Under the pieces are notes generated by a model. It did not search any database and was not told the DNA's origin. It saw only the letters and a program-made list of their open reading frames with translations. Both the position numbers and the translations under genes were made by a program. A stretch of 64,000 bases of DNA, taken from NCBI GenBank assembly GCA_963700225.1, contig CAVOWU010000011.1, positions 758 through 64,757 of the forward strand, written 5' to 3'. This document shows positions 7,694 to 50,588 of the stretch, piece by piece; position 1 is the stretch's first letter; every line of letters starts with the position of its first letter. This DNA is from an uncultured Acidobacteriota bacterium (lineage in GTDB: Bacteria > Acidobacteriota > Terriglobia > Terriglobales > Acidobacteriaceae).

Positions 7694-10589
<2,896 letters not shown>

Positions 10590-10592
10590 AAT

Positions 10593-12131: not shown

Positions 12132-12212
12132 ATCGCCTCAATCTCTGAACTGCTCGTCAAAGCCCGCGTGAAACATTTGCGCATCCCTACGCGATCAGGG
12201 CGAGCGCGACAA

Positions 12213-14846: not shown

Positions 14847-15002
14847 TTGTGCTCCTGTAGTCGTCGTCCGCGAACATCGAAAAAAAACGAACTGGTCCTG
14901 AGTACCAGGCTGAAGCTTGCCGAGACGACCAGGAATCATCGAACCTTCACCCTTTGAACCGCATCGAGCAAAGCTATTTGTTCCAGCGCCCTGAATACTG
15001 GT

Positions 15003-17696: not shown

Positions 17697-17872
17697 AAAT
17701 TTGGATGAATGCTGCTCCTTTGCCGCAACATGATATGACATGCACACGGCACGGCGCCGCGTGTTCTCCAGTCGCGGGAATTCCGAGCGGGATAAGGTGC
17801 AGAAAATACCCAAATACTGACACATCTACTTACACAGTTTTACATGAATTCTTAGTTAAGTTGTTTGTTATC

Positions 17873-32018: not shown

Positions 32019-35000
32019 TTAATAGATCAGCTTGATCGCTGCCTGCAGCAGGCGAGGAGACGCGGCGCCGACTACCTGGCCAAACGTCGAACTATTCATA
32101 TTGCCGTTCACAGAGGTGGGTCCAAAGAACTGGGCGTGGTTGAACACGTTGAACGCCTCCAGGCGAAATTGCAGAGACGTGGATTCGCTAAACGGTACGG
32201 ACTTCATCAACGCCATATCGTAATTGTCCAGCCCAGGGCCATAGAAGAAGCGGCGACGGGCATTCCCCGGTGTGCCCAACGGCTGGAGGCTGAAAAGCGA
32301 AGTGTTGAAGTAGGACTTTCCGTTGCGCGGATTGGAATTCAGCTCCAAAGGCCCAGCTGTATATTGTGGCTCGTCGACGCCGTAATTGTTGATGCCGTTC
32401 GGCTCGGCTCCCAGCAGGGAATTGTCCCCGTAATTCAGTAGCGTGACCGGAAAACCAGTGCTGAAATGAGTAATTCCGGAGACCGTCCAGCCCTTGCTCC
32501 AGCGTTTGGACGCCCGAACCAGGCGCTCAATCGGAAGTTCGTAGGCGTAGCTCACCACGAAATTGTGGGTCACATCGAATGAGGACAAAGCTCGGCTGAG
32601 AGCGGGATCGATGGGGTTGACCTCCTCGCCTACGTTCGAAGACTGATCGATGGACTTGCTGAAGGTATAGCTGGCGAACAGTTGCAAGCGCTTGCTGGTG
32701 TGGCGGAGGCTGAGTTCGAGTGCGTTGTAGTTGGAGTTGCCGATCGTACTTTGATTGGTATTGCTGCCGAAACTTGGCCCCAGCGGTCCCCGGGTTCCGT
32801 TGACGATTTGGCCGGAAGCTGTCGTGAAGACGTTGCTCTCACCGAAGGGTCCACAAGTTGCCGATCCGGGCGCCACTTCACTCGGCTGGCTCAGACTGAG
32901 GCACAGCGCGGGATCGCCGGGATTGGACTCCACGAGAACCAGTAATCGATGCGACTGATTGCCCACATAGCTTCCGCTCAAGAGAGTATTGTCCCCGATC
33001 TGACGCTCGATGGAGATCATGTATTGCTCGGTGTAAGGGATGCGGTTGGTGACCGGATATCCGGGAATGCCGCTGATGGGAACGTATTGCGACCAGTCGA
33101 TATTGCCATCGGGATGGCTGGCAGACGAGTTCAGTGGCGCAAACGTCACGGGGAAATACTGTCCGAGATTTTCTCCGTTAGATGCGGTGATGAATGGATT
33201 CGAAAACAGCGGCGGTGCAGGGCTACTGTAGGTTGTGCCGTAAGGAGCATTGGCCGCCAGAACTCCCAAAGTGAGGGCTTCGATCGACGTGTAATACATT
33301 CCGAAGCCGGCTCGAAGGCTGGTTTTTCCCGGCCCCCCTAATATCTTCCCGATGAATCCATCGCTGGCTGAATCCGGCGAGTAGACCAGACCAATGCGCG
33401 GCGAAAATTCGTCTCCCGGAGGTGCAAGCGTGCGCCGCACTCCCGGGTCAGTGGGATACAAAATTCCCTCCGGCGCGCCGGGAAAAACTACGGATTGCTT
33501 GCCCGGTTCGGTGGTTGAAATCTGGTTGTACTTTTCATACCAGGGCTCGATGCGGTCCCAGCGCAAACCGTAGTTGAGTGTGACATTGGATCTTACATGC
33601 CAGCTATCCTGGGCAAAGATGCCGGCATATTTATTGCGGCCATAAAAGGGATTCAACTGGCTCTGGTTGAACTGGCTGGGAATTCCGAGCAGGAAGTCGA
33701 CGAAATCAACCCCGGTTTCGCTTCCTGTAAACAGGAAGCTGCCATTGAATTGCGCGATCGGATTTACGTTGACCTGGTCGTAGTGAAATTCTCCGCCAGC
33801 TTTCAGGGTGTGGCGTCCCATCACTTTCGAAAAACTGTCGAACCACTGGAACGTATTGTTCGCTTGCTTCAGTTCGTTCGTGTTTGTTCCAGTCGAAAAA
33901 TTATTAAAGACAAGACTTTCCACGCCCTGGCCTGCCGGATCAAGCGCCACGATGCTCGGCGCTCCGGAGGAAGTGACGAAACCTTGTGACACCAGGCTGA
34001 CGCCCAGTCCGCCTTGCGGTTTGCCGAGGTCGTTGGAGGCGCGCATATAGCTTAAGTGGAGTTCGTTGACCGCGGTCGCGCTCAGAGTCTTCGTAACTCC
34101 CAGGCTCAATAGTTGCGCTCGCCCCTGATACAGCGCGTTGAAGCCCGGCACGCTGGCTCCGCCCTGCGCGACTGGATAAGGATTGTTCAGCGAATAGTCG
34201 TCGAGAAAGTAGTAGCCGGAGACCAATCCCCAACCTGTATTGGCATCGATCCGAAGGGATCCTTTGTCGTCCCGGAGCGCTTGATTGTAGGCGGAAGTCG
34301 CGAACTGATCTCCAGAAGAGTTCGGCGCTGGAATGTACTGCAGCAGGTTTCGGGCAGGCCCGGACCAAGAACTGCTGGGGATTTGCAGCGTAGGTAGAAC
34401 ACAAGCGGTCGTGCTCGACGCAGAATAGTTTGTATTGGTGCAGCCCGAAAAATAGTAAGGCTCGCCGGCGATAACTTGGTAGCCGAGATTCTGCGAGAGC
34501 GTGCTGGCCCACGCAGGGCCGCTGACGGCCGTTCCGGAGAGAGAACCAGCCAGGTCAGAAAGATTCCCATCGCGATCCTGCGCCGAAGGCACGGGGATCA
34601 AACCGGTATCCACTCCCTGGCGCTGGCGCGTGCCCTGGTAGTCGGAGAAGAAAAAGATTTTGTTTCTCTTGATGGGGCCGCCTACCGTTCCACCAAACTG
34701 GTTCTGAATGAATGTGCCGCGCGTCGGAGAGAAGTAATTGCGCGCGTCGAGGTCGGTGTTGCGCAGAAATTCGAAAAGATCACCGTGAAACGCATTGCTG
34801 CCGGACTTGGTGATTACGTTGATCTGGCCGCCACTGAATTCTCCGTACTCGGCGTCGAAGTTGCTGGTGAGAATGCGAAACTCAGCGATGGAGTCGAGGT
34901 TGGGGATAATTGCCGTCCCCATGTTCACATCTTCTTCGGAGTCGCTTCCGTTGACGATGAAGGCATTGGCGAATTCCCGCTGGCCATGGATGGAGATCGT

Positions 35001-35556
35001 GCCGGGATTCAGATCGCCGGAAGGCGAGAGCGCGCTCGCGCCCACATCTTGCACGGTATCGGAGTTGATGGAGGTTGAAGGTGCAACTCCGGGTTGCAGC
35101 GACAGCAAGTCGGTATAGCTTCGGCCGTTCAGGGGCACGGCATTCATCTGCTCGCCGTTAATGACTTCGCCCACCTGGCTGCTGTAGGTTTCCAGATGGA
35201 CGGCGCTTTCGCTCACCGTGACTGCGTCGCTCCGATCTCCCACTTGGAGCACGACATCGAGTAGAAGAGCGCTATTGGTGTCGAGGACGATTCCAGTGCG
35301 GCGGTATGGCCGGAAGCCGGGATGGTTTACTTCCAGAACATAGCCACCGACCGGGATTACCGGAAAGGTGTATGCGCCTCGGACGATCGGCGGTCGTGGA
35401 TTGCCGGACGCCGGTGGTGCTGTTGACCAATGCGATGTAAGCGCCGGTGATCGCGGCCCCGGAGGGGTCTTTCACCGTTCCAGAGATGCTGCCGCCAACG
35501 CCAGCGAAAGCGGCCCCCAACAGGACTAGTGGCAGGCATAGAGCCCGCAATGTCAT
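32019..35556 (-). pseudogene. TonB-dependent receptor (CarboxypepD_reg type) interrupted by one frameshift near 35378-35390
   Basis: ORF 35272..35676 (from M41, ATG 35556) encodes the signal peptide plus ISGTVKDPSGAAITGAYIALVNSTTGVRQSTTAD. The domain continues in another frame as GAYTFPVIPVGGYVLEVNHPGFRPYRRTGIVLDTNSALLLDVVLQVGDRS, which runs into ORF 32019..35252. Confidence 0.85.
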
Positions 35557-35888
35557 CGCGAGAGGTCTTCGCCTGCTCACTGCAGATCGTAACGGCAAGG
35601 CGTATTCGCTTTCCAGATGCGATTCGGTCGCATCTGGAGATTGCTTGATTTCTCGGTCTTGAATGCCTGTCTTCATACAATAAATGGAGTGAGATTAAGG
35701 CTAGTTGCAAACGGGTCGCATCTAGGGTCCGCTTTTGATACTGACGGACGCTGCACCCTGCCGTCAAGTTTCATGCAGAAATTTCGTCGCAGAACTGTTG
35801 CGACAACTTGCAACAATCGAGAACCGGCGAGCGAAAGGTAATTTGAAGGCGAACGGTGTTGCAGCATAATAGGGCTGAGGCAAATGCC

Positions 35889-36785
35889 ATGAAGGGCTCC
35901 AGGACTTCTGCTGCATCCATTTCCATACTGTGGTCTCTCGTTTTCGGTTTGCTTACGCACCCTTCGTTCGCGGAAGTGGCTCCATCCTTGGTGCACGGTT
36001 TGTGGGTCTGGAAGAGCCCGACTGTTTTGGCAGCTCCGCGCGGTGCAGAGACACTGTGGAACTTCTGCAAATCCGAGGGCATCAACGAAGTCTATGTGTC
36101 AATTTCGGCGCGAAGTGAAGCGGCCGAGGAGAACCAATTGGTTCATCTCATTACCCTGCTTCATCGTTCCAACATTCGCGTCGAAGCACTATTGTCAAGC
36201 ACAGACGCCGATGAGCCGGGAAAGCACCGAGAAACCTTGCTGAATCACGTGCGGGAAATCGTGCGATTCAACCAAAGGCATTCCAAGGAGCGATTCGATG
36301 GGGTCCATCTTGATGTCGAGCCTCAGCAGCGGGCGGAGAACAAAGGCCCGGGCAACCTTCGGTTCCTGCCAGGACTCACAGATGCTTTTCGCGAGGTGAG
36401 ATCGCTGGCAGAACCGGCCGGGATGACGGTGAACGCGGACATCCAGAACAAACTTCTCAAGGGCAGTCCCAACGAACGAAAGATGCTTCTTTCTGCGGTA
36501 CCGCGCGTCACATTGATGATGTACGAGCTCAGCAGCCCCTCAGACGGAGAGGGCGTCGAGCAAAAGGCCGAAAAAGTGGGGAAGGCGAGTCAGAGATTTC
36601 TCGATCTCGCCTATGACGGATTGGCCGACCAGAGGTTGGCGAAAATGGCAATCGCGCTGCGGACGCCGGACTATGATGAACTGCTCCCAACTATGCTGAA
36701 GAAACTCGACGATGCGAATCGTTCGAATTCGCATTACCTGGGCTGGGCACGGCACTCTTACAATGACTACCTGAAATCGAAATAG
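35889..36785 (+). CDS. Hypothetical secreted protein, possibly a glycoside-hydrolase-like TIM barrel
   Basis: ATG 35889 with a signal peptide. LWVWKS..., EGINEVYVSI and DGVHLDVEPQ are reminiscent of GHL-type barrels. Weak assignment. Confidence 0.55.
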   Translation: MKGSRTSAASISILWSLVFGLLTHPSFAEVAPSLVHGLWVWKSPTVLAAPRGAETLWNFCKSEGINEVYVSISARSEAAEENQLVHLITLLHRSNIRVEALLSSTDADEPGKHRETLLNHVREIVRFNQRHSKERFDGVHLDVEPQQRAENKGPGNLRFLPGLTDAFREVRSLAEPAGMTVNADIQNKLLKGSPNERKMLLSAVPRVTLMMYELSSPSDGEGVEQKAEKVGKASQRFLDLAYDGLADQRLAKMAIALRTPDYDELLPTMLKKLDDANRSNSHYLGWARHSYNDYLKSK

Positions 36786-36819
36786 AGTCCACGCCTGTTC
36801 CTTTCTTCTACCAACCTCG

Positions 36820-37815
36820 TCATCGGAATTGGTATCCCGGCTTCAGTTCACATCGGAACACTCGCGTGCGATCGGCGTTTTCGCTTGCGTTGCAGTTGGC
36901 CCAGCTGAGGAGAAGCGCGGGTCCGAGAGGGAAGAAGACTCGCTGCTGATCGACATCGGCCTCGATCGTTACGCCCTCGACAGCCGCCGGCAGCGTGAAA
37001 CTCAACTCCCTGCCGAAAATTACAGGAAAAAATTCGTGAGCGGCCGACGTCGGCATGTTGTGCAACACTTCGGCTTCCACCAGGAATGTCGCTGTACTCG
37101 ACCAGTCGCGAGCGGTGACCTCGATGATTTGTCCGCCGCGGGAAGACTGCGTCGATTCGATCCTTGTAAAAGGGCAGGGTCCAGCGATGCAAGAGACGCG
37201 GGCATCCCGAAACTCGTTACCGGCTCCGGCATCCAGGGTGGTCGAACCGATGGTCGCCTTCCACTTTCCATCCGGAGAGCACGGATGCTGATTCCGGCAG
37301 GGGATGTTTCCCTGATTTTCGACCTGGAATGTCTTCACTGCGCTTCCGATGTTCACGTCGGTAGTGGTCTTGACGGAATATCGCACGGTCACGTTGCCCA
37401 CATTGGTTGGCGGCCGGCCATCTGACGCCGCATTCGTGGAACGTGGCACCATGTGGACGACATAAAGCTTGTCCCCGACGAACTCCGGCAGGTCCAAGAG
37501 GAAGTAATCAGGATGCCGGAATTCTAGCGTGATGGGCTGGCCACGCTTCGTTCCTACATGGAGAGGAATCAGGAATAGCCCTGAAGAATCCGACTTGACC
37601 GTTTCTATCTGTAAACTGTCGATGGCGGTAACCTGGACACCGGCGATCGGCCTCTGCTTGCGAACGTCAGAGTCCTTCACCGTGATCGCGCCCTGTAGGA
37701 CAATAATCCTGTGGCTGCGCCAGCGGAAATAGGCCACAGCGCCGACTACTAGCGCGAGGATGACGATTACGGTCAACGCGAATCCGAGTATCCGTTTGAG
37801 GGTCACACTTGTCAC
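36820..37815 (-). CDS. Hypothetical single-pass membrane-anchored protein with Ig/CarboxypepD_reg-like N-terminal module
   Basis: 331 aa with an N-terminal TM (ILGFALTVIVILALVVGAVAYF), then LQGAITVKDSDVRKQRPIAGVQVTAI. Several Cys pairs. No family recognised. Confidence 0.6.
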   Translation of the reverse strand: MTSVTLKRILGFALTVIVILALVVGAVAYFRWRSHRIIVLQGAITVKDSDVRKQRPIAGVQVTAIDSLQIETVKSDSSGLFLIPLHVGTKRGQPITLEFRHPDYFLLDLPEFVGDKLYVVHMVPRSTNAASDGRPPTNVGNVTVRYSVKTTTDVNIGSAVKTFQVENQGNIPCRNQHPCSPDGKWKATIGSTTLDAGAGNEFRDARVSCIAGPCPFTRIESTQSSRGGQIIEVTARDWSSTATFLVEAEVLHNMPTSAAHEFFPVIFGRELSFTLPAAVEGVTIEADVDQQRVFFPLGPALLLSWANCNASENADRTRVFRCELKPGYQFR

Positions 37816-37974
37816 GCGGTTATGTCCGCTGATTTAAATTAATGAATGATGGTAATTTAAGCAACGATTGTTGCAGCGCAGGACGCGGGGCAACGGCATC
37901 CATCATGCCCGAACCCAGCATCTGTTTTGGTTGCTGTCTCGCGCTGGGAGTTTGTCTAGAATCATACGACGCGG

Positions 37975-39327
37975 ATGACAGACGTTTACGCCAATCAATT
38001 GTCGCGCCGGCAACTGATGCGGCAGGCGCTCGGCGCGGGCTTATGCCTGCCGTTCGCCCGGTCGCTATTTTGCCAGACCGGCGCCGCACCCTCGGCCCAG
38101 GATCAAAAAAAAGACGAGAAAGATTTGCCTCCCGGGCAATTCTCCCTCTCTGCCGAGGACGATCAGTTCCTCCACGAATTAGAGGCTGCCAGCTTCCTTT
38201 ATTTCTTGGATCAGCAAAATCCCAAGACCGGGATGGTACAGGATCGCTGTGACTTGCAAGGCGCGGCCCCAGGACTTGTCGCCAGCATTGCCGCCACCGG
38301 TTTTGGCCTGACGGCGCTCTGCATCGGCGAGAAGCGAGGATTCGTTACGCGCACGGCCGCTCTGGAACGTCTATTTACCGCCTTCAATTTCCTTTGGAAG
38401 AAGCTGCCCCAGCATCGGGGATTCTTCTATCACTGGGCGAATGTAAATACGGGCGAGAGAGTTTGGGAATCGGAGATTTCATCGGTCGACACTGCCATTC
38501 TCTTGTGCGGCGTGCTGACCTGCCGTGAACACTTCCGGCATCCCGCTATTACCCAACTGGCCGACTTGATTTTCCAACGTGTGGAATGGACATGGCTCTC
38601 CGAAGACACTTCTCTGCTTTCCCACGGCTGGACTCCCGAGATCGGTTTTCTCCCCTCCCGCTGGGACTACTACAGCGAGTTGATGATGATGTATCTGCTG
38701 GGAATGGGCTCGTCTTCTCATCCTCTTAAGCCGGAAGCGTGGAATGCGTGGAAGCGCCTCACTTTCGAATACGACGGCTTGCGCTACATCGGGTCGTTCG
38801 CCCCGTTGTTCGTACATCAATATTCCCAGGCTTGGTTTGATTTCCGGGGCAAGCGCGATAAATTCGCTGACTATTTTCAGAACTCGGTCGTCGCCACTGA
38901 GGTTCATCGACGGTTTTGCCTCGAACTGGGCAAACAATTTCCGGATTACAGCGACGACCTTTGGGGCATTACCGCCTCGGACGGTCCCAATGGCTACGTA
39001 GTTTGGGGCGGTCCTCCCGCTGTCGGTCCCATCGACGGAACGATCACTCCCAGCGCGACCGGTGGCTCGCTGACGTTCGCTCCTCAGGCGACTCTGCGGG
39101 TTCTGAAGAACATTCGTAAGCGTTACAGTTCCGCCTGGTGCAAGTACGGGTTCGTGAACGCTTTCAACCCCCTCAACGGCTGGTATGACCATGACGTGAT
39201 CGGAATCGACACCGGAATCACCATGCTCATGGCCGAAAATCTGAGGACTGGATTCGTCTGGAACACCTTCATGAAGACTCCTGAAGCCCAGCGCGGCATG
39301 GAGCGCGCCGGTTTCGTCAAATACTGA
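37975..39327 (+). CDS. Tat-exported glucoamylase-family (PF10091 / GH144-like) protein, putative periplasmic beta-1,2-glucanase
   Basis: Twin-arginine signal SRRQLMRQALGAGL. FLYFLDQQNPKTGMVQDR, ASIAATGFGLTALCIG, GFFYHWANVNTGER, SSVDTAILLCGVL and LMMMYLLGMGS are typical of this (alpha/alpha)6 family. Confidence 0.75.
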   Translation: MTDVYANQLSRRQLMRQALGAGLCLPFARSLFCQTGAAPSAQDQKKDEKDLPPGQFSLSAEDDQFLHELEAASFLYFLDQQNPKTGMVQDRCDLQGAAPGLVASIAATGFGLTALCIGEKRGFVTRTAALERLFTAFNFLWKKLPQHRGFFYHWANVNTGERVWESEISSVDTAILLCGVLTCREHFRHPAITQLADLIFQRVEWTWLSEDTSLLSHGWTPEIGFLPSRWDYYSELMMMYLLGMGSSSHPLKPEAWNAWKRLTFEYDGLRYIGSFAPLFVHQYSQAWFDFRGKRDKFADYFQNSVVATEVHRRFCLELGKQFPDYSDDLWGITASDGPNGYVVWGGPPAVGPIDGTITPSATGGSLTFAPQATLRVLKNIRKRYSSAWCKYGFVNAFNPLNGWYDHDVIGIDTGITMLMAENLRTGFVWNTFMKTPEAQRGMERAGFVKY

Positions 39328-39519
39328 CCCGCCCGCGCTCAACGATCGGGATTCTGCCCAACCGTAAGTATCGGTTTTTCATCAAAGAACGCGTTTCAAG
39401 AAGGCGATTTCCGGTGTATATTCGGTGAACTCCAGTCGCTGGAGCTCGACTGCGACCTGCGTCCCCCGTGGAGGAAATCTCGGCAGGATCCAAGAGCTTG
39501 AAACCAAAGGCTTTAACCG

Positions 39520-41337
39520 ATGTCTGATCGGCAAACCTTCCTGAGCAGTTGGCGCGAGCGCCTTTCCGCTCTGCGCAATGTTCCGCCTGTCCTGAAGATT
39601 GTCTGGCAATCCGGGCGGGGAGTCGTCCTGTTCGGCATCTTGGCGCGTGTTCTTGCCGCCGTCTTACCGCTTGGCCTTACCTACGTCGCCAAGTTGATTA
39701 TCGACATTGTCGCGAACGCATTAAAGACTCAGGCCGTTCCAACGCGGCTCTGGTGGCTGGTGGGGATCGAGTTCAGCCTGGCGGTACTGGGGAGCATCCT
39801 CAGCCGCATGATCGATTACTCTGATTCGCTTCTCGCGAACAAGTACACGCGGCACGTCAGTATTCAGGTTATGAAGCACGCCTCGGAACTGGATCTGACC
39901 GCCTATGAAGACCCGGTCTTTTACGACCGGCTGGAGCGCGCCCGCGTGCAGGCCACCGACAGGCTGGTGATGATTCAGTCCATCGGGCGCCTGGAGTTGC
40001 AGGTGATCACTGCAATTGCGTACTCCGCGGCGGTAATGTTCTATTCGCCTTGGCTGATGCTGTTGTTGGTTCTGGCCGTGGTTCCGGCGTTTCTTGGGGA
40101 GACCCATTTTGCCTTTCTGGGGTATGCCAAGAATTTCCGTCAAACGCCGATCAAGCGTCAGCTCGATTACCTGCGGCAGGCCGGTGCTACGAAGGAAGCA
40201 GCGAAAGAACTCAAGCTTTTCAGCCTGGCAGGATTTTTCACTCAACGCTTCGCGAAGCTTTCCGACATCATTTACGAGCAGGACGTCGAACTGGCTCGAA
40301 AACGCCTTGGCATTGGCTCGATCCTGTCGTTCATCAGTACGGGCGGCTACTACGGCGGCTATGCCTACGTGATCTGGCGGACAGTTGCCGGCAGACTGAC
40401 CATCGGCACCTTTTATTTCCTGATCACCGCCATCATGCAGGCGAGCAGTAATATCCAGCAGGTGTTCTCGACCCTGTCAGGGATCGCCGACCAGGCTCTG
40501 TTCCTGACCGACCTGCTCGCTTTTTTCGAGATGAAGCCGAGCATTCAGTCGAAACCGAACGCGCTGCCGGCTCCGCGGCCGATTCGGCAGGGATTCGAGT
40601 TCCGTGACGTATGCTTTCGCTATCCCGGAAATGGCCGTCTGGTTATCGATCATCTGAATTTCCATCTGCATCCGGGGGAGCGGGTGGCATTGATCGGCGA
40701 GAACGGTCAGGGAAAGACCACGATCGTCAAGCTGATTACGCGATTGTACGATCCGACTGAGGGGCAGATCCTTCTCGACGGAGTGGACCTTCGCCAGTAC
40801 GACCTCGAAGACCTTTATCGCGAGATCGGCGTGATTTTTCAGGATTTCATGCGATACGAAATGACCGCGCGCGAAAATATTGCGGTCGGAAAAATCGAAG
40901 AAGTCGAGGACCTTGCCCGGTTGCAGAACGCCGCGCAAAAGAGCCTGGCCGATGAAGTGATCGCGAGATTGCCGGGAAAGTACGACCAGATGCTAGGCCG
41001 TCGCTTCGAAGGAGGCGTTGATCTTTCAGGAGGCGAGTGGCAGAAGCTCGCTCTGGCCCGCGCCTATCTCCGTAATTCACAACTGCTGATCCTGGACGAG
41101 CCAACAGCTGCGCTCGACGCCCGCAGCGAATCTGAAGTTTTCCAGCGCTTCGCCGAACTTACCAAGGGCAAAATGGCGTTGTTTATTTCACATCGATTCT
41201 CCACCGTTCGCATGGCGGATCGCATCGTAGTGCTCGAAGATGGACGCATCGCCGAAGAGGGAAAGCACGAGGAGTTAACTCATCTTGGTGGCCGATACGC
41301 CGAGATGTTTGAATTGCAAGCTGCCAGTTATCGATAA
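39520..41337 (+). CDS. ABC exporter, fused TMD-NBD (MsbA/NdvA-ChvA architecture)
   Basis: 605 aa with six N-terminal TM helices. Walker A GENGQGKTT, signature LSGGEWQ, Walker B LLILDEPT. The stop lies 9 nt before the glucan-synthase-like gene. Confidence 0.9.
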   Translation: MSDRQTFLSSWRERLSALRNVPPVLKIVWQSGRGVVLFGILARVLAAVLPLGLTYVAKLIIDIVANALKTQAVPTRLWWLVGIEFSLAVLGSILSRMIDYSDSLLANKYTRHVSIQVMKHASELDLTAYEDPVFYDRLERARVQATDRLVMIQSIGRLELQVITAIAYSAAVMFYSPWLMLLLVLAVVPAFLGETHFAFLGYAKNFRQTPIKRQLDYLRQAGATKEAAKELKLFSLAGFFTQRFAKLSDIIYEQDVELARKRLGIGSILSFISTGGYYGGYAYVIWRTVAGRLTIGTFYFLITAIMQASSNIQQVFSTLSGIADQALFLTDLLAFFEMKPSIQSKPNALPAPRPIRQGFEFRDVCFRYPGNGRLVIDHLNFHLHPGERVALIGENGQGKTTIVKLITRLYDPTEGQILLDGVDLRQYDLEDLYREIGVIFQDFMRYEMTARENIAVGKIEEVEDLARLQNAAQKSLADEVIARLPGKYDQMLGRRFEGGVDLSGGEWQKLALARAYLRNSQLLILDEPTAALDARSESEVFQRFAELTKGKMALFISHRFSTVRMADRIVVLEDGRIAEEGKHEELTHLGGRYAEMFELQAASYR

Positions 41338-41346
41338 AGGGACCCC

Positions 41347-44300
41347 ATGCCGCTCAACACTCACGATAAACCCGTCATCGCCGAAGTCATACGAACCCAG
41401 GCTTCGGCGGGCGAACCGACGGAATTCGACGCTCTTCAATCCAACGCCGAGCGCCTTGCCTCGCAGTTGGCTTGGCTGCCGCGCGTTCCCTCGTCCAATA
41501 TTTTTGCCCGGCGATCTCGGGAGGTAAGAAGCAAGCTTTTTCCCGTTCTCGCCGCTGTGGACGCCTCTTTTGCCAAGGGTTCCCTGACCGACGACGCGCG
41601 CTGGCTTCGCGACAATTCTTCGCTCCTCTACTCCGAACTGGGCACGGTCCAAGGCGATCTCAAGCTGCTCCGCAATCTCCCGCACGTCCGTAGCTGCAAC
41701 AGCTGAGGTTCTACCCAGAATTCTTGCCTTCGCTCAGGGATACTTCCGCGAAACTTCCTATCATTTTCAAGATCAGACTTTTATTTCGTTCTGCCGAGGC
41801 TATCAGCGAGCGACGCCTCTGGAACTGCGGGAATTCACGGTCTTGAGTGCTGGACTGAAGTTGGTTCTACTCGAAGAAATTGCGGCGCGCGGGGGCAACG
41901 CGGTTGATAATCCTGAGGCGCCATCGCCCGAAGTCGGCGTCTGCATTCAGAGCCTGCGCGAAGTCAGCCAGACTTCCTGGAACGAATTCCTCGAACCAGT
42001 GATTCTCTTTGGCGATGTTCTGCGCCGCGATCCAGTGGACGCGTACGCTTCAATGGATCCAGACAGCCGTCACATGTATCGCAAAAAAGTAGCGGCCCTG
42101 GCGGCGCAGTCGGACTTCACGGAAATCCAGGTGGCGCAAGAAGCGCTGCTCCTCGCTCAGCAGGCTCATGCCCGCATCTACCGCGATCCACGCGTTGCCC
42201 GGCGTGAATCGCACATTGGCTATTACCTCGTCGGCGAGGGCCGTGAAGTGCTCTCACAACGCATCGGTCGCCGGCTGAATCCACTGCAGCAACTTCGCGC
42301 CTGGATGTGGCGCCATCCCGATGAATTCTTCCTCCCCGGGATAGCAATTCTCACGCTCTCCATCATTACCGCGACTCTCTTGTACGTGACCACGCGCGAC
42401 AGCTCGCCGCTGCTCGTTCTGTTCGCGATGCTGCTATTTCTGTTCCCCGGCTCCCAGTGCGCCATTCAGGTCATCGACACCATCATCACCGAGTTGCTTC
42501 CGGCTGAAATCCTTCCGAAACTGGACTACTCGAAAGGCCTTCCCGCCGACTGTTTAACTTTGGTCGCTGTTCCCACGCTTTTGCTGAATGAAAAGCAGGT
42601 CCACGGATTGATCGAGGACCTCGAAGTCCGCTTCCTGGGGAATCACGATTCGAATATTCACTTTGCGTTGCTGTCCGACCTGGCGGATTCAGACCACCGT
42701 GCCAGCGAAGAAAATCCGCTGATCGAGCTGTGTTCGTCGCTCATCCAGGAACTGAACCAGAAATACGCGGCTGAAAAGAAGGGGTCGTTCCTCTTGCTGC
42801 ACCGCCATCGAATCTACAACCCGCGCGAGAAAGGCTGGATGGGTTGGGAGCGTAAACGGGGCAAGCTGCTTGACCTCAACAAATATCTTCGTGGGGAATA
42901 CGACAGTTTTCCGATCAAAGTTGGCGATCTCTCGATTCTTCCGAAGGTGCGTTTCGTCATCACCCTCGATTCCGACACGGAACTTCCACGGGGATCGGCG
43001 CACCGCATGGTCGGAGCGCTGGCGCACCCGCTGAATCAGGCGATCATCGATCCGCAAAAGAACATCGTCGTGGCCGGATACGGCATCCTGCAGCCGCGGG
43101 TCGGAGTGAGCGTGCTGAGCACCGTCCGATCGCGCCTGGCGGCAATCTATGCGGGTCAAACAGGACTCGACATCTACACCCGGGCCGTCTCCGACGCTTA
43201 TCAGGATTTGTATGGCGAAGGCAGCTTCACAGGCAAGGGAATTTACGAGGTCGATACGGTCCACCGCGTTCTCGACCAGCGCTTCCCCCGCAATGCGCTG
43301 CTCAGCCACGATCTGATCGAGGGAGCTTACGCGCGCGCCGGTTTGGCCAGCGACATTGAAGTCATCGAGGACTACCCGTCCCACTACAGCGCCTACAACC
43401 GGCGCAAGCACCGTTGGTTGCGCGGCGACTGGCAGATTGCCGGATGGCTTCTTTCCGACGTGCCGGATGAAGCCGGTGCCCGGGTTGCCAATCCCATCTC
43501 GCTGATTTCGCGCTGGAAGATCTTCGACAACCTGCGCCGCAGCTTGGTCGAGCCGGGTACTTTCCTGCTTCTCGTTTTCGGCTGGCTCGCCCCAGGCGTC
43601 CGTCCGGTTCGCTGGACTCTCGCCACGGTCTTCCTGTTGTTCCTCCCTGCCGTGTTTCAGGTGATTTTCGGCGTCGTGAAGGCGATCTTCGAGGACAAAC
43701 TTACCGTCGCACGTGATGCCGTGCATGCATTCCTCACCACCATCATCACCTCGACGCTCACCTTAATTTTCCTTGCGCACCAGACGCTGTTGTCGCTCGA
43801 CGCAGTTGTCCGCGCGATCGTTCGAAAGTCCTTTACCCGCGAGCGCCTGCTGGAATGGGAAACTGCTGCCGAAGCCGAACTCGCCACGCGCCTGGGGCCT
43901 GCGGATCGTTACCTGAACTGGATTCCCGTTCTGTCCCTCGTTGTCGGTGCTCTGGTGTGGTGGATACACCCGAGTTCGCTGGAAGTCGCGCTGCCCATTC
44001 TGCTGTTGTGGGCCTCGAGTAAGCTTGTTTCTATTTGGCTGAATCGCCCCACCGGCGTTCCGCGCAAGGAATTGCCGCGCAAGGAATTGCTCTTCCTTCG
44101 TAGTTCGGCACTGCACACTTGGCGCTACTACGCTGAATTCTGCACCGAAGAGCATCACTGGCTGATTCCGGACAATGTGCAGGAAGAGCCGCCCGCAGTC
44201 GCAGCCCGTGTCTCGCCAACCAATCTCGGACTCCTCCTGAACGCGCAGCAGGTGGCTTGCGAGTTCGGCTATCTGACCGTTCCAGAAATGGCGGTGCAAA

Positions 44301-45827
44301 CGCAGCGGACTTTGGCCACGCTCTCCCGTATTCCCAAACATCATGGCCACATTCTGAACTGGTACGACACCCGTACCCTTGAACCCCTTACGCCGCGCTT
44401 CATTTCTTCCGTCGACAGCGGCAATCTCGTGGCTTCTTTATGGACGCTGCAGCAAGGGTTGCTGGCTCGGATCAAGCAGCCTCTCTTGCAAACCAGCTTG
44501 GCCGAGGGACTCCTCGATTGTCTTCGTGCGCTGGTTGATCTGAAAGCTTTTCCCGCGCAAGCATCTCGCTCGCTGTGAACAAGAGCTCAAGACCGACAAG
44601 TGGTTCACAGCGCTTCTCACTTTGTTCGAAGCTGGAGACGATGAAAAGCCCTCCTCAGTCAAACCGCGCGAAGCTGCTGAGATTGAGTGGTTCGAGCGCC
44701 AGACCCGCGCCCGCATTCAAAGCATTCAGGACGTGGTGCGCTCCTACGTGCCGTGGGAATTGCCAGAGTTCGCTTCGGTACGCAACGACATCAATGTCGG
44801 ACCCGAGCTCGAAGAAAATCCATCGCTCCGCCAGTTACCGATCTTCATTGACGACCTGCACGCCCGCTTGGATCGCTCGCTGCCCTCCATTGCGAGAGGA
44901 GACCGGGGTCTTTACGAGAATCTGCAGGCCATGCTGCCGCAGGCTCGCGCCAACGCGCTCCGGCTTATCGAGACGCTTCGCAGCATCGCTTCTGAAGCGG
45001 GAGATCTCGCCGAGGCAATGGACTTTGCTTTCCTGTTGAATCCGCGCCGCAAACTGATGTCGGTGGGCTTCAACGTCGAAACCCAGAAGCTCGAGCCAGC
45101 CTGTTACGACTTGCTCGCAACCGAATCCCGCACCGCTGTTTTCGCTGCGGTTGCCAAGGAAGATATTTTGCAGGAATCCTGGTTCCGGATGGGCCGCACG
45201 CACACCTTGGCCAACGGCAACCCAGTTCTACGCTCCTGGACCGGCACAATGTTTGAGTACCTGATGCCCATGTTGTGGATGCGCTCCTACGCCAACACGC
45301 TGCTCGATCGCAGCCGCATCGCCGTGGTGGATTTCCAGCAAACCTACGGCAACCGCAAGGGCGTGCCCTGGGGAATTTCAGAGTCGGCGTACTACAAGTT
45401 GGATGAAGCCGGGAACTACCAGTACCACGCGTTCGGAGTTCCCCAACTCGCCATGATGAAAGGCGAACTCAATCTGCTGGTGATCTCGCCCTATTCCACT
45501 TTCCTCGGCCTGACCGTCAACGCGACGGAGGCCCTGCGCAATCTCCATCGCATGGAACGCCTCGGATGGTTCGGTCCTTACGGATTTTACGAAGCCGTGG
45601 ACTTTGGCCCTGCCGACAAAGTGCTGCGTTCTGGCCAGATCGTCCGATCCTGGATGGCTCATCATCAGGGCATGAGCATCCTCGCACTGGCCAATTTCCT
45701 TTGCGACAACGTCGTGCAGCGCTGGTTCCACAGCAATCGCCGCGTGCAGGCAACGGAATTGCTGCTGCATGAAAAGCCGATCTCTCACGTTCCCAAAACC
45801 CGGCTGCCACGCGCCAATGCCGCGTGA
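41347..45827 (+). pseudogene. Cyclic beta-1,2-glucan synthase (Cgs/NdvB)-like gene with GT84 and cyclization domains but no GH94 domain; interrupted by two frameshifts
   Basis: Three consecutive ORFs in frames 1, 2 and 0 (41347..41706, 41843..44578, 44622..45827). N-terminal WLRDN..LPHV / LPRILAFAQGY. GT84 motifs LDSDTELP, QPRVGVS, LLSHDLIEGAYAR, HRWLRGDWQI. Cyclization-domain motifs SPTNLGLLL, GHILNWYDT, SVDSGNL, YDLLATESR, SWTGTMFEYLMP, PWGISESAYY, MAHHQGMS, LLLHEKP. Confidence 0.8.
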
Positions 45828-45974
45828 CGCAAGGGGAAAGCCGTCGTAAGTTGGTTCTAGTGTGTCCCTCGGCGCCCCTGTGGCGAGAGCTCTTCGATTC
45901 TGCCCGCGATGTATACTCTGACTTTTCATTTTGTAAGATTTTGACTTCATTGATTTCAATTCAGGAGACCCTCC

Positions 45975-46733
45975 ATGCAGAGCCGCATTACCGGCACGAC
46001 CATGCCCGTTCTGGAATTCGTTCTCGATCCCAACGACTCCATCATCTCTGAAGCCGGAGAGCTCTCCTGGATGGGCAGCTCGATCCAGATGACGACTCAT
46101 ACCCAGTTCGCAGGCGGGGGTGGCTTGTTCGGCGTGCTCAAGCGCGTGGCGGGCGGCGGATCGATCTTCATGACGGAATATCGCGCCTTCGGAGCCGCCG
46201 GAGAACTCGCCTTCGCTACCAAGCTCCCGGGGCACATCGTTCCCGTCGAGGTTTCGCCCGGCCACGAGTACATGATTCATCGCCACGGCTTCCTTTGCGC
46301 CACTCCACAGATTCAGATCAGCGTTGCCTTTCAGCAATCGCTGGGCGCTGGAATCTTCGGCGGCGACGGCTTCCTTCTGCAAAAGCTCAGCGGACAGGGT
46401 ACGGCATGGCTCGAACTTTCCGGTGAACTTGTTGTCCGCGATCTTCAGCCCGGAGAAACATTGCGCGTACATCCCGGCCACGTCGGTGCGTTTCAAGCCA
46501 GCGTCGCTTTCCAGATCACGACCGTCCCTGGCATCAAGAACATGATCTTCGGCGGCGATGGAATCTTCCTTGCCTCTCTCACCGGCCCGGGGAGAGTCTG
46601 GCTGCAGACTCTCCCCATCGCCAAGCTCGCCCACGCCATCGAGCGCTACATTCCCCGTGAAGCCACGCGACGCACAGTAGAAGGCGGCGTAGTCGGCGGA
46701 ATCGTAGGGTCGATCCTCGACAACATGAAGTGA
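45975..46733 (+). CDS. TIGR00266 / AIM24 (DUF124) family protein
   Basis: 252 aa preceded by an AGGAGA RBS. GELSWM..., GGGSIFMTEY, GDGFLLQKLSG.G.AWLELSGE and GGDGIFLASLTGPGRVWLQTLP are typical of the family. Confidence 0.8.
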   Translation: MQSRITGTTMPVLEFVLDPNDSIISEAGELSWMGSSIQMTTHTQFAGGGGLFGVLKRVAGGGSIFMTEYRAFGAAGELAFATKLPGHIVPVEVSPGHEYMIHRHGFLCATPQIQISVAFQQSLGAGIFGGDGFLLQKLSGQGTAWLELSGELVVRDLQPGETLRVHPGHVGAFQASVAFQITTVPGIKNMIFGGDGIFLASLTGPGRVWLQTLPIAKLAHAIERYIPREATRRTVEGGVVGGIVGSILDNMK

Positions 46734-46874
46734 GGAGGAAGCGGGTCCTTCTGGGAAACCTCTGTGTCCCTTGTGGTGAGGGTTTTGAAGTGGTCTGCAC
46801 CAAAGTAATGCGTCGGTGATCCTGCGACCCTCAATCCGTCCCTGCCCTTCGGTTAAACTAAGACCAGTCTCCCA

Positions 46875-47681
46875 ATGATTAACGGCAAACGCATCGCGGT
46901 CGTCATGCCCGCCTACAACGCGGCCAAGACTTTGGAAGCCACCGTCGCTGAAGTCCCCGAGCTCGTCGACGTCTGCATCCTCGTCGATGACAACAGCAGC
47001 GACCAGACGGTCGAAGTAGCCCGCCGTCTGGGCTTGCACGTCTTCCAGCACGACCGCAACTACGGCTATGGCCGCAACCAGCAGACTTGCTACCGCGAAG
47101 CTTTGGCGGCCGGCGCTGACGTCGTCATCATGCTTCACCCCGACTACCAGTACACGCCGCTGCTCATCACGGCGATGGCGAGCATGGTCGCCTATGATGT
47201 CTACGATGTCGTCCTCGGCTCGCGCATCATCGGCGGCCGCGCCTTGCTCGGCGGCATGCCTTTGTACAAATACGTCTCCAACCGCGCTCTGACTGCATTT
47301 GAGAATCTGTTCCTCGGCGTCAAGCTCTCCGAATATCACACCGGATACCGCGCCTTCAGCCGCAAGGTGCTGACCGAGCTGCCGCTGCTCGAAGATTCCG
47401 ACGACTTTGTTTTCGATAACCAGATGCTGGCGCAGTGCGTTCATTTCGGGTTTCGTATCGGCGAAGTCTCGTGCCCGACGAAATATTTCAAGGAAGCTTC
47501 GTCAATCAATTTTCGCCGCAGCGTGAAATATGGCTTCGGCGTGCTGGCGACGACCCTGCAATTTGCGCTTCAGAAGACGGGGTTCATCCACCTGGCCCGC
47601 TTCAGCGACATCGGACGCAAACTTGAAGCCGGGCGCGAAACCTACTACGCTCCTCGCACGGAATCCGGACACACCGCTTAG
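46875..47681 (+). CDS. GT2-family glycosyltransferase (polyprenyl-phosphate sugar synthase-like)
   Basis: [23 protein letters not shown], and [16 protein letters not shown] with a DxD-like motif. Soluble GT-A fold. Confidence 0.88.
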
Positions 47682-47704
47682 CGTCTCCGGCGTTCCCGAC
47701 TGGA

Positions 47705-49242
47705 ATGCAAGTAAGCCCAAACTCTTCCGCACAACCAAACGGCCGTGGGGACTTTTCTGCCCGCAATCTGTTTGCTCTCGCCTGTCTGACCGCGTTCGCG
47801 TTCCTGGTGATGGGCTACCATCCTGGCCTCGAGGATGATTCTTTCTACCTCGCCGCTATCAAGCGCGATCTGAACCCAGCTCTCTTCCCGCACGATTCCG
47901 ATTTCTTCCGCCTGCAATTTCAGGCGACCATCTTCGATAAACTCATCGCTTTTTCAGCGCGCCTGACTCATTTGCCAGTCACGTGGATCGTGCTCTTATG
48001 GCAGGTTGCCGCGATCTTTTTTCTTCTTCACGGGTGCTGGCGGATTGCCCGCCGCTGCTTCGCGGCTCCCGAGGCGCATTGGGCGACAACCACTTTGATT
48101 GCCGCGATCCTGACTCTTCCGCTGCCCGGGATCGCCATCAATCTTGCCGATCAGTACCTTCACCCGCGAACTCTGGCGACGGCGTTAGTCCTGGCGTGCG
48201 ATCGTTGCGATCGTCGATCGGCGGCCGTGGCTCGCCGGACTCCTGCTGGCAATCGCCTTTTCGATTCACGCCATCATGGCCAGCTTCGGGATTTCTTTCT
48301 GCGTGTTCTTGTGGTGGTCGTTGGGAGAGAACAGGCGGAAATCAACAGTGCCCATTACCGCCGCTCTCGTTCCGTTGGGTTGGCTCTTCGAGCCCGCCTC
48401 CGATGCCTGGCGCCAAGCCGCAGCAACCCGCGGATTTTATTTCCTCACGCGCTGGCACTGGTATGAATGGTTGGGAGTCTTTGCTCCTCTAGCGCTGCTG
48501 TTTGCGGTTCGCCGATTCCTGCAAGCCCGCCGGGACGCGAGCGACAACTCTGCGCTGCTCCCGCTGACATCGAGCTTGATCTATTACGGCGTATTCCAGA
48601 TGATCGTCGGCCTCGCGATCATGCTTCCGCCAGGTCTCGAACGCCTTCGGCCCTTCGAGCCCATGCGCTACCTGCATCTGCTCTATCTTTTATTTTTCCT
48701 GATCGTCGGTGGACTGCTCGGCCGCTACGTACTTCATAGAAGTTTCTATCGCTGGCTCCTGCTTTTCGTTCCGCTCGCCGCCGGCATGCTTTATGCGCAG
48801 CGCCAAATGTATCCTGCGTCGACGCACCTCGAGATGCCTTGGGTGGCGCCCAGCAATCCCTGGCTGCAAGCCTTCACTTGGATCCGCGCCAACACTCCGA
48901 CAGACGCGCTCTTCGCGCTCGATCCGCACTACGAGTCGCTTCCTGCCGAGGACGCTCACGGATTCCGCGCTCTCGCCGAGCGCAGCGCCCTCGCCGACTA
49001 CGAGAAAGACGGAGGCATGGCCGCCCGCGTCCCGCGCCTTGCGCCGCGCTGGCTCAACGAAGTCACGGCGGTCAATGGTTGGAAAAATTTCCGGCCCGCA
49101 GATTTTGCTCGCTTGAAGAAAGATCTCGGCTGTGACGTGGGTCGTCTTGTCGCGTGCAGACGCCCAATTCTCAGTTGCGCAGCCAGAAGGCATGACTTGT
49201 CCCTACGCCAACGGTCAAGTGCGAGTCTGCCGGTTATACTGA
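47705..49242 (+). pseudogene. Polytopic membrane protein (GT-C-like), interrupted by two frameshifts
   Basis: Frame 2 (47705..) reads ...TLATALVLA. Frame 0, open only from 48189, continues AIVAIVDRRPWLAGLLLAIAFSIHAIMASFG.... Frame 1, open from 49117, supplies a natural C-terminus VTWVVLSRADAQFSVAQPEGMTCPYANGQVRVCRLY* ending at 49242. Confidence 0.65.
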
Positions 49243-49270
49243 AGTTCCAGCGAGCCATTTTCAACCACGA

Positions 49271-50530
49271 ATGCCGACTCCTCCATCCCCCTCAACCCGC
49301 ACCCAGCCTTATGTCTGGATGGTGCTAGTCGCCCTCGCGATCCGTCTCGCCGTCATTCCCTTCGTCTATCGCGACTGGTTGGATCCGTTCGTCCTGGAGC
49401 ACTGGGCCTTCGGTTTGATTGCGCGCTCGATTGCTTCGGGTCATGGCTTCGGCGGTCCGTTCGCGCCCACCGGCGCATCGGCATTGCTGCCGCCCGTGTA
49501 CTCGTATCTCCTCGCCGGAATCTTCAGGATCTTCGGGATCGAAACCAAAGCTTCCATCCTCGCGGCCTTGTCGTTGAACAGCGTCTTCTCAGCGCTTACC
49601 TGCATTCCAGTGTTTCTTCTGGCGAAGCAGGCCTTCGGAGATCGCGTCGCAAAATGGGCTGGCTGGGGATGGGCCTTCTCGCCCTATGGCATCTATTACG
49701 GAGCAGACTGGGCGTGGTCAACGTGCCTCGTCACGCTCGAACTCGCTTGCCTGTTTCTCTGGGCTTGGCGTCTCGAGAATTCAACGCGCACGCGCGACTG
49801 GATCCTCTTCGGCCTTTTCGGCGGCGTCGCCGCGCTGACCGAACCAGTCATCTTGTCGGTAGTGCCGCTGCTGGGCCTATGGACTCTCTATCGCCGGTAT
49901 CGCATGAACCGCCCGTGGAAGGCGCCAATGGCCGCGGCCGCGTTCGCCGCTCTGGCGGTGATGTCTCCGTGGTTCGTCCGCAACTACGAACTCTTCCACA
50001 AATTTATTCCCGTTCGCAGCGGCTTCGGCCTCGAACTGTATATCGGCAACAATGGTTATTCCCAGCGCTGGGTCAACAGCAGCCTGCATCCCAACCATAG
50101 CGAAGCCGAGCTTTCGGAATACGAGCGCGTGGGCGAGATCGCCTACATGGATCACAAGTTGCAGCAGGGCAAGGTCTACATTCGTGCGCACCCGGTGTGG
50201 TTTCTGTGGATGACCGGCCGGCGCATCCTCTACATGTGGACTGGTTACTGGAGCTTCGATCGAGCCTACTTGAAAGATGAGCCGCTCGATCCCCCAAACA
50301 TATTTCTCGACACGACCATGACTTTACTCGGTCTGTTCGGACTATGGCGTCTCTTCAACCGCGATTCCGCGTTGGCAGTTCGCTTCGCCATCATCCTTCT
50401 CGTTTTTCCTTTGCCATATTACATTTCGCATCCGGAGACGTATTACTTCCGCCCCGTCGATCCGTTGATCGTGATTCTTGCGGCACTCGCGCTCGCAGGC
50501 GGAATAAGGCGGCAAGAAGTGCCAGCCTAG
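49271..50530 (+). CDS. GT-C fold membrane glycosyltransferase (ArnT/PMT, GT39/GT83-like)
   Basis: 419 aa with about 10 TM helices. The N-terminal loop DWLDPFVLEHWAFG..GHGF, LPPVYSYLLAG and the overall pattern are typical of the PMT_2 family. Confidence 0.8.
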   Translation: MPTPPSPSTRTQPYVWMVLVALAIRLAVIPFVYRDWLDPFVLEHWAFGLIARSIASGHGFGGPFAPTGASALLPPVYSYLLAGIFRIFGIETKASILAALSLNSVFSALTCIPVFLLAKQAFGDRVAKWAGWGWAFSPYGIYYGADWAWSTCLVTLELACLFLWAWRLENSTRTRDWILFGLFGGVAALTEPVILSVVPLLGLWTLYRRYRMNRPWKAPMAAAAFAALAVMSPWFVRNYELFHKFIPVRSGFGLELYIGNNGYSQRWVNSSLHPNHSEAELSEYERVGEIAYMDHKLQQGKVYIRAHPVWFLWMTGRRILYMWTGYWSFDRAYLKDEPLDPPNIFLDTTMTLLGLFGLWRLFNRDSALAVRFAIILLVFPLPYYISHPETYYFRPVDPLIVILAALALAGGIRRQEVPA

Positions 50531-50588
50531 CTTTACTTGAATCGTTCGGTATAAACAGCAGGTTTAATTTTCAGGTTTATATAAAAAG

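Follow-up and report, generated by a model that had tools for sequence, protein, structure and literature searches.

Cyclic beta-1,2-glucans are known mainly from Alphaproteobacteria and matter for infection, symbiosis and osmotic adaptation. A 2025 review describes their synthase, the cyclic glucan synthase (Cgs), as a three-region enzyme (PMC11842490), and a structural study found conservation of the phosphorylase active site among known homologs and reported that the Agrobacterium enzyme is crippled without its C-terminal half (PMC10901819). Here we describe a locus in a 64-kb stretch of DNA from an uncultured soil Acidobacteriota bacterium (contig CAVOWU010000011.1; hereafter, the window), where positions 37975-45827 hold, according to the open reading frame (ORF) listing, the three consecutive plus-strand genes of a preliminary description: a GH144-family glucanase, an ATP-binding cassette (ABC) exporter and a Cgs-type synthase that lacks the GH94 phosphorylase domain. 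In our assessment, these genes probably form a cassette for the synthesis and export of beta-1,2-glucan, centered on a cyclic glucan synthase that is naturally devoid of GH94. Full-text literature searches found no description of a natural GH94-less Cgs and none of beta-1,2-glucan synthesis in Acidobacteriota. Genes of this kind are visible in databases yet uncharacterised, and the cassette appears to be an uncharacterised natural variant of a known system, with a product that is predicted from sequence.

The placement of the third gene in the Cgs family was borne out by comparison with solved structures. Of the three ORFs into which this gene is broken in the window (see below), the middle one matches the Cgs of A. 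tumefaciens (8RF9/8RF0) with an E-value of 1e-150 over 841 aligned residues, and the last one matches the cyclization domain of T. italicus Cgs (TiCGS; 8WY1) at 1.7e-74 and A. tumefaciens Cgs at 7.7e-65, with the N-terminal part of the cyclization domain matching 8WY1 at 1.8e-37. Given that 8WY1 is the founding member of GH189 (PMC10834661), the family number given in the preliminary description is correct. Pfam has no GT84-specific model, and its PF13632 model reaches 17.2 bits on the synthase, under the 27-bit cut-off. All the motifs that had been quoted are present, namely (amino acid positions in the reconstructed protein) RWLRDN 85, LPHV 111, DSDT 541, QPRV 582, HDLIEG 654 and RWLRGDWQ 689 in the N-terminal and glycosyltransferase (GT) regions, and SPTNLG 956, NWYDT 1004, SVDSGNL 1021, SWTGTMFEYLMP 1296, PWGISESAY 1340, MAHHQGMS 1436 and LLLHEKP 1471 downstream. 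The membrane segments reported earlier correspond to six hydrophobic stretches, two before and four after the GT domain. The domain order is collinear with that of the long, GH94-containing forms, and this extends to a segment that may correspond to the GH189 helical insert (alpha4-alpha5; about 170 aa, aa 1071-1240), where identity is only 20%.

In A. tumefaciens Cgs, the GT active site includes D624, D626 and D739, and Y694 is the priming tyrosine (PMC10901819); in TiCGS, the nucleophile is E1442 and the acid/base is E1356, with additional roles for E1400 and H1536/H1537 (PMC10834661). The equivalents in the synthase are found in the segments TLDSDTE (D624/D626), SHDLIEG (D739), GLDIYTR (Y694) and HRWLRGDWQ (the RW pair) of the GT84 domain, and in GISES (E1442), LLATES (E1356), TMFEY (E1400) and MAHHQG (H1536/H1537) of the GH189 domain; the numbering of the 8RF9 chain is offset by 19 from the published one, as checked on D624/D626. 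All eleven of these positions proved invariant when 56 intact short forms were aligned with 5 long forms.

The last residue of the synthase corresponds to about position 1534 of A. tumefaciens Cgs, in which the CY/GP domain boundary lies at 1535/1536 (PMC10901819). The proposed lack of GH94 stands: in the window, the stop codon is located 15 aa past LLLHEKP, and 56 intact orthologs likewise end at a stop codon. The C-terminal regions of long forms are GH94 by Pfam (PF06165, 1.8e-163; PF17167, 2.5e-127), and tblastn searches with such regions (roughly 1300 aa) from five long-form relatives yielded only chance matches in the window (best E 0.29) and no match in the flanks, within 10 kb, of 71 short-form loci. 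Neither does a correction of the reading frame uncover a fused GH94 domain downstream: the stop codon is followed by an AIM24-family gene and then by a GT2 gene (Pfam). We rejected the possibility that the short length is an artefact of a contig end or a split gene because the 56 intact copies end at a stop codon with unrelated genes downstream, and that of a GH94 encoded just downstream because of the identity of the next genes.

The short form is a large family. More than 100 protein clusters of about 1490-1500 aa came up in a word-indexed search, with 67-100% identity and PF10091 as the only domain; their labels are 'cyclic beta-1,2-glucan synthetase' (JGI) or 'glucoamylase family protein' (NCBI, Candidatus Sulfotelmatobacter). 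An exhaustive search at 50% clustering, for which the 401-aa C-terminal ORF of the synthase was the query, placed at least 20 distinct complete short-form clusters ahead of the first long form. A genome scan with one genome per species returned 80 loci, of which 71 were short forms, with a stop codon no more than 72 aa past the end of the alignment; the called proteins of the intact orthologs measure about 1490-1500 aa, and the stop-to-stop ORFs of short forms span about 1470-1660 aa. Almost all short forms come from Terriglobia (Acidobacteriaceae, Sulfotelmatobacter, Korobacteraceae, Bryobacterales, Acidoferrales), including the cultured Terriglobus albidus DSM 26559. Ten long forms, from Pyrinomonadaceae, Blastocatellia and other phyla, show 36-40% identity; in these, a GH94 region is either fused to the synthase or follows it directly, and it measures about 1310-1324 aa in the five copies that are intact. 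A single bipartition separates short from long forms in a neighbour-joining tree, which is unrooted and includes few long forms.

The coupling of the synthase to the exporter is almost invariable. The reported 9-nt gap between the two genes is exact (exporter stop codon 41335-41337, synthase ATG 41347), and, among the 66 short-form loci with enough upstream sequence, 65 have the exporter gene as the immediate upstream neighbour of the synthase, on the same strand, and the one left over has a copy with a broken frame. The two genes often overlap or are separated by a few nt, the median gap being 18 nt. Across loci, the exporter is 57-89% identical, above the 42-69% of the synthase; reverse look-ups from two exporter homologs led to synthases of 1488 and 1498 aa located 9-12 nt downstream; and this exporter was absent from the long-form loci examined. 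No conserved element was detected 5' of the exporter in an alignment of the 66 upstream regions. The protein matches PF00005 (6e-35), with PF00664 sub-threshold, and falls below every NCBIfam cut-off: the best model is MsbA (291.6 bits against 602), and the NdvA/ChvA models NF010178 and TIGR01192 (235.6 bits against 733 and 184 against 585, respectively) align with the ATPase half only (residues about 290-599). Its matches among solved structures are generic ABCB-type exporters, and the AlphaFold model has a mean predicted local distance difference test (pLDDT) score of 54, with a shallow underlying alignment (83-94% identity). Because the NdvA/ChvA cut-offs are not reached and the membrane domain is unmatched, the exporter is not a member of the NdvA/ChvA/Cgt family. 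Thus, of the NdvA-like exporter first proposed, the role and architecture are retained, as an ABC half-transporter tied to the synthase, and the family membership is not, given the scores with NF010178 and TIGR01192.

In the mechanism that we propose, the inner-membrane synthase would prime itself on the conserved tyrosine, its GT84 domain would elongate a beta-1,2 chain from UDP-glucose, and the GH189 domain, with its retaining transglycosylase chemistry, would release the chain as a ring by intramolecular transglycosylation, with no phosphorolytic trimming. The half-transporter encoded 9 nt upstream would then move the glucan to the periplasm, where the GH144 endo-beta-1,2-glucanase, predicted to be exported by the twin-arginine translocation (Tat) pathway, would cut or remodel it. 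The cyclization domain of TiCGS in isolation turns linear glucan into rings (PMC10834661), and the Cgs of B. abortus without the phosphorylase domain still makes cyclic glucans, with a higher degree of polymerisation, which Cgt exports poorly (PMC11071196). Because the short form ends at the same point as the truncated B. abortus enzyme, its predicted products are cyclic beta-1,2-glucans of looser or larger size, exported by a dedicated transporter; by this analogy, the rings would be expected to be larger or less uniform than those of canonical Cgs. Overall, the reading of the locus as a synthase-exporter-glucanase cassette is supported: the synthase falls within the Cgs family, no GH94 domain follows it, and its association with the exporter, and in part that with the glucanase, recurs across loci.

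The identification of the first gene as GH144-like proved accurate. The protein matches PF10091 over its full length (2.9e-68), and its closest solved relatives are XcSGL (8XUL, 1.5e-67) and CpSGL (5GZH, 4.4e-49), both of family GH144; with the residue list available for this glucanase clan (PMC12102758), E211, F268 and Y330 of CpSGL are found to be kept, and the equivalent of E142 is an aspartate, likewise acidic. The segments aligned at those sites are YSELMM, PLFVHQ, NGYVVW and SSVDTA. The N-terminus contains SRRQLM followed by a hydrophobic stretch, with SRRQLMRQALGAGLCLPFA present, and the twin-arginine motif recurs in 31 of the 36 GH144 orthologs beside short-Cgs loci, with the RR pair in two more, which agrees with the Tat export predicted previously. 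Among the 57 short-form loci with at least 4 kb on both sides, 34 encode a GH144 protein in the flanks, compared with none of the five eligible long-form loci (Fisher p 0.015); as the loci lack independence in phylogenetic terms, this contrast is no more than suggestive. The proposed co-conservation of the three genes therefore applies to the synthase-exporter pair (65 of 66 loci), with GH144 being a frequent but not universal partner. Its position varies as well: the gene may lie upstream, on the same strand or divergently, or else downstream in convergent orientation. The closer GH144 subtype is accompanied, in 25 of 25 loci of occurrence, by a divergently transcribed gene for a 331-aa protein with an N-terminal membrane helix, all-beta domains and several invariant cysteines, which belongs to a large family of 'hypothetical' proteins; its AlphaFold model (pLDDT 80; predicted template modelling score 0.39) gave only generic Ig-like/beta-sandwich fold matches. 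This protein is possibly an accessory component of the cassette.

Two further enzymes were observed at related loci. A second, more distant GH144 subtype (47-55% identical) is encoded in L005, L009, L024, L072 and L089-L091, divergently and just upstream of the exporter, without the 331-aa partner. A secreted GH39 protein (about 508 aa; PF01229, 2.7e-107) adjoins the synthase-exporter pair in 19 loci (for example, L004:6192-7856 and L013:14479-15987), either just 3' of the synthase or in the place of GH144. The window has no such gene, and the GH39 protein may represent an additional periplasmic glycosidase belonging to this system.

The glucanase could instead be a catabolic enzyme that forages on foreign beta-1,2-glucan and is merely encoded nearby, an explanation that we regard as unlikely, though less so than the other alternatives considered here. 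The known GH144 enzymes are degradative (PMC12102758), the gene is absent from the flanks of 23 of the 57 loci and variable in position and orientation elsewhere, and a gene for a TonB-dependent receptor is found near it in the window as well as in 9 related loci. Nevertheless, GH144 is the third commonest neighbour among 1096 flanking ORFs, occurs with the synthase-exporter pair in several independent arrangements and is not found beside the sampled long-form genes, and no conserved sugar importer or beta-glucosidase gene comes with it. Within the biosynthetic cassette, the glucanase is a candidate for sizing the glucan after export.

The synthase does not occur in the window as the single gene described at 41347-45827. 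It consists of three ORFs in three different frames (41347-41706, 41843-44578 and 44622-45827), so that the quoted motifs are distributed over three frames; the first frame ends with a stop at 41704-41706 and the second with one at 44576-44578. The breaks were not stated in the preliminary description, which nonetheless alluded to a 'corrected sequence'. Removal of one base near 41693 and one near 44555 gives a 1492-aa reading that differs by 2 residues from the uninterrupted 1492-aa product (P0001) of a relative, L001 (a contig of a metagenome-assembled genome, MAG; GCA_964496655.1), which is 98.66% identical to the window over 20 kb. The inserted bases are also missing from L082 (98.8%) and L083 (99.4%). 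Between the reconstructed gene and that of L001, there are 51 synonymous and 2 non-synonymous codon differences, which implies strong purifying selection on the synthase up to the present.

When the window was compared with four sister contigs (98.7-99.7% identity) over about 37 kb, ten single-base insertions and two deletions proved private to it, none within a homopolymer. Apart from those in the synthase, the insertions are at 8883, 8900, ~10574, 28641, 35386, 37917, 48195 and ~49130. The one at 35386 splits a TonB-dependent-receptor-like gene into 32019-35252 and 35272-35676 (1178 aa in L001), and those at 48195 and ~49130 split a DUF6798 membrane-protein gene into 47705-48466 and 48276-49328 (511 aa in L001 and L083); 8883, 8900, ~10574, 28641 and 37917 are non-coding or gene-start positions. 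Similar breaks occur at several long-read MAG loci of the short-Cgs family. If the sequence is taken as given, the stops that follow the shifts after 4 and 7 codons and the breaks in two neighbouring genes would make the synthase a genuine pseudogene, with glucan synthesis lost here though kept in relatives. This is improbable: private insertions of the same type affect intergenic DNA and sites far away in the window, there are ten insertions against two deletions, none of the three frame segments contains further stops, amino acid changes amount to 2 per 1492 residues against 51 synonymous changes, and the sister contigs are intact at both sites. The spread of the ten private insertions across the window points to assembly error rather than decay, and it is highly likely that both synthase frameshifts are insertion-biased errors of the consensus. 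A programmed frameshift was rejected, the inserted bases being absent from the sister contigs.

Several observations weigh against the cassette as we interpret it. As read, the window copy of the synthase encodes a 119-aa N-terminal fragment only. The membrane domain of the exporter (residues 1-330) has no match at E 0.01 or better among the PDB sequences, Cgt included, and the substrate of this transporter is deduced from gene linkage alone. About 40% of the loci (23 of 57) have no GH144 gene in the flanks, and the function of the entire short family is a prediction from homology. Furthermore, A. tumefaciens Cgs1-1540, the equivalent truncation, fails to rescue hypo-osmotic growth, and the authors of that study assign a scaffolding and chain-measuring role to the missing region (PMC10901819), so that the loss of GH94 is not obviously neutral.

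This failure of Cgs1-1540 in vivo, along with the proposal that the missing region arranges the chain for cyclization (PMC10901819), also underlies the view that the short enzyme forms no rings, the action of its GH189 domain being limited to the release or disproportionation of linear beta-1,2-glucan, which would be exported as linear chains comparable to the osmoregulated periplasmic glucans of E. coli. The cyclization domain of TiCGS also carries out intermolecular transglycosylation (PMC11842490), and a periplasmic endo-glucanase partner recalls the OpgH/OpgG pair. We find a linear product hard to reconcile with the cyclic glucan made by the truncated B. abortus Cgs (PMC11071196), with ring formation from linear glucan by the isolated domain (PMC10834661) and with the invariance of all residues of the cyclization mechanism in the short forms, and assign it a low probability. 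That length control was split off, with a stand-alone GH94 beta-1,2-oligoglucan phosphorylase of the type found in other bacteria (PMC3960220) acting in trans from beyond the 64 kb in view of this genome, is less probable still, given that no GH94 is found in the window or within 10 kb of the 71 short-form loci and that the chain trimmed by Cgs is still bound to the enzyme and held on the GH94 surface (PMC10901819), a situation that a soluble enzyme would not reproduce.

With a cyclic product as the preferred reading, a tentative extension, which we think could apply to Terriglobia but would not favor over its negation, is that control after export replaces cytoplasmic phosphorolytic length control: large or variable rings would be moved by a purpose-built exporter with a new type of membrane domain, and GH144, or GH39 in some lineages, would size or open them. 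If this is true, a major soil phylum has its own periplasmic glucan system, and the short family is a natural counter-example to the Cgs C-terminal half as a needed scaffold. Being large, under purifying selection, devoid of the C-terminal half and coupled to a distinct exporter, this family offers a natural experiment on the setting of ring size and on what Cgs's C-terminal half is for. A prediction that would follow is the production of periplasmic beta-1,2-glucan by many soil Acidobacteriota, which has not been previously reported and which, given that cultured carriers exist, can be tested directly. For making large-ring glucans, the compact synthase-exporter pair could also be of use.

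Table. Coordinates of the cassette and of its features in the window, with the basis of each assignment.
Feature	Position	Strand	Basis
GH144-family endo-beta-1,2-glucanase homologue, 450 aa, predicted periplasmic	37975..39327	+	PF10091, solved relatives, conserved residues
Tat-type twin-arginine signal region of the GH144 protein, MTDVYANQLSRRQLMRQALGAGLCLPFARSLFCQ	37975..38079	+	S/T-R-R-x-[FLVM] motif, then hydrophobic stretch
ABC exporter half-transporter, 605 aa, N-terminal membrane domain and C-terminal ATPase	39520..41337	+	PF00005
Short Cgs-type beta-1,2-glucan synthase gene without GH94, 1492 aa after removal of two inserted bases	41347..45827	+	homology, frame reconstruction
First window-private 1-nt insertion, frame 1 to frame 2, placement ambiguous within 3 nt	41693..41695	+	absent from L001, L082, L083
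Second window-private 1-nt insertion, frame 2 to frame 3, placement ambiguous within 8 nt	44548..44555	+	absent from L001, L082, L083
GT84 glycosyltransferase domain, aa about 381-735	42488..43552	+	alignment to A. tumefaciens Cgs
GH189 cyclization (transglycosylase) domain, aa about 901-1477	44048..45779	+	matches to 8WY1
Membrane-anchored beta-sandwich protein, 331 aa, divergently paired with the GH144 gene	36820..37815	-	no Pfam family above threshold

Other parts of the window contain additional carbohydrate-related genes. Downstream of the synthase, a plus-strand run at 45975-51629 encodes the AIM24-family protein, the GT2 protein, which resembles polyprenyl-phosphate sugar synthases, the DUF6798 membrane protein, a PMT_2 (GT-C) glycosyltransferase and an NAD-dependent epimerase. 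It looks like a module for lipid-carrier-dependent periplasmic glycosylation, and this gene set is common only to the closest relatives, L001, L058, L082 and L083. A 688-aa open frame at 45378-47444 on the minus strand, antisense to the 3' end of the synthase and to the AIM24 and GT2 genes, matches no family; most likely, this frame is spurious and reflects the GC-rich DNA. At 7694-17825, the minus strand carries a plant-polymer degradation cluster (esterase, arabinofuranosidase, tannase/feruloyl esterase, GH3 with a PA14 domain, GH9), adjoined by a two-component system and a TonB-dependent receptor, which appears to be unrelated to the glucan cassette. At 25033-28424 on the plus strand, the gene for a 795-aa GT4-type glycosyltransferase overlaps by 4 nt a GH130-family phosphorylase gene. 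An Rfam scan of 35200-47000 gave no match, promoter and terminator scans gave counts no higher than the shuffle expectation, and exact-protein look-ups of the exporter, the GH3 protein and a DUF2834 protein found no database record.

Compared with the canonical three-region Cgs, the short form has the N-terminal domain, GT84, six membrane helices in the same 2+4 pattern around the GT domain, and GH189 in the same order; it keeps all known catalytic and priming residues and shares about 50% identity with sampled long-form relatives in the GT84 and cyclization cores. Its N-terminal domain is about 90 aa shorter, and it is missing the entire C-terminal half (about 1300 aa, comprising the GH94 phosphorylase and a Rossmann-like subdomain), which in the canonical enzyme supplies length control, a glucan-binding surface and part of the dimer interface. 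The exporter resembles Cgt, NdvA and ChvA in being an ABCB-like half-transporter with fused membrane and ATPase domains, genetically tied to a Cgs-type synthase, but it is not their ortholog, has a membrane domain without a match to solved structures, and is encoded immediately upstream of the synthase. The glucanase matches CpSGL and XcSGL over the full length, with the key residues kept, and is likewise predicted to be secreted, but it differs from them in its twin-arginine signal and in adjoining a synthase instead of a degradation cluster with importer and glucosidase genes. OpgH and OpgG of E. coli follow the same logic of a membrane beta-1,2-glucan synthase with a periplasmic enzyme of the beta-1,2-glucanase type, but belong to unrelated protein families (GT2 and GH186, respectively), and OpgH translocates its own product without an ABC exporter. 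Two engineered counterparts of the short synthase, the truncated B. abortus Cgstr and A. tumefaciens Cgs1-1540, have the same end point; Cgstr demonstrates that a protein ending there is still able to form cyclic glucan. These, however, are laboratory constructs: the rings of Cgstr are larger and poorly exported by Cgt, and Cgs1-1540 does not function in vivo. The natural form, in contrast, constitutes a conserved family that has its own exporter and is subject to purifying selection.

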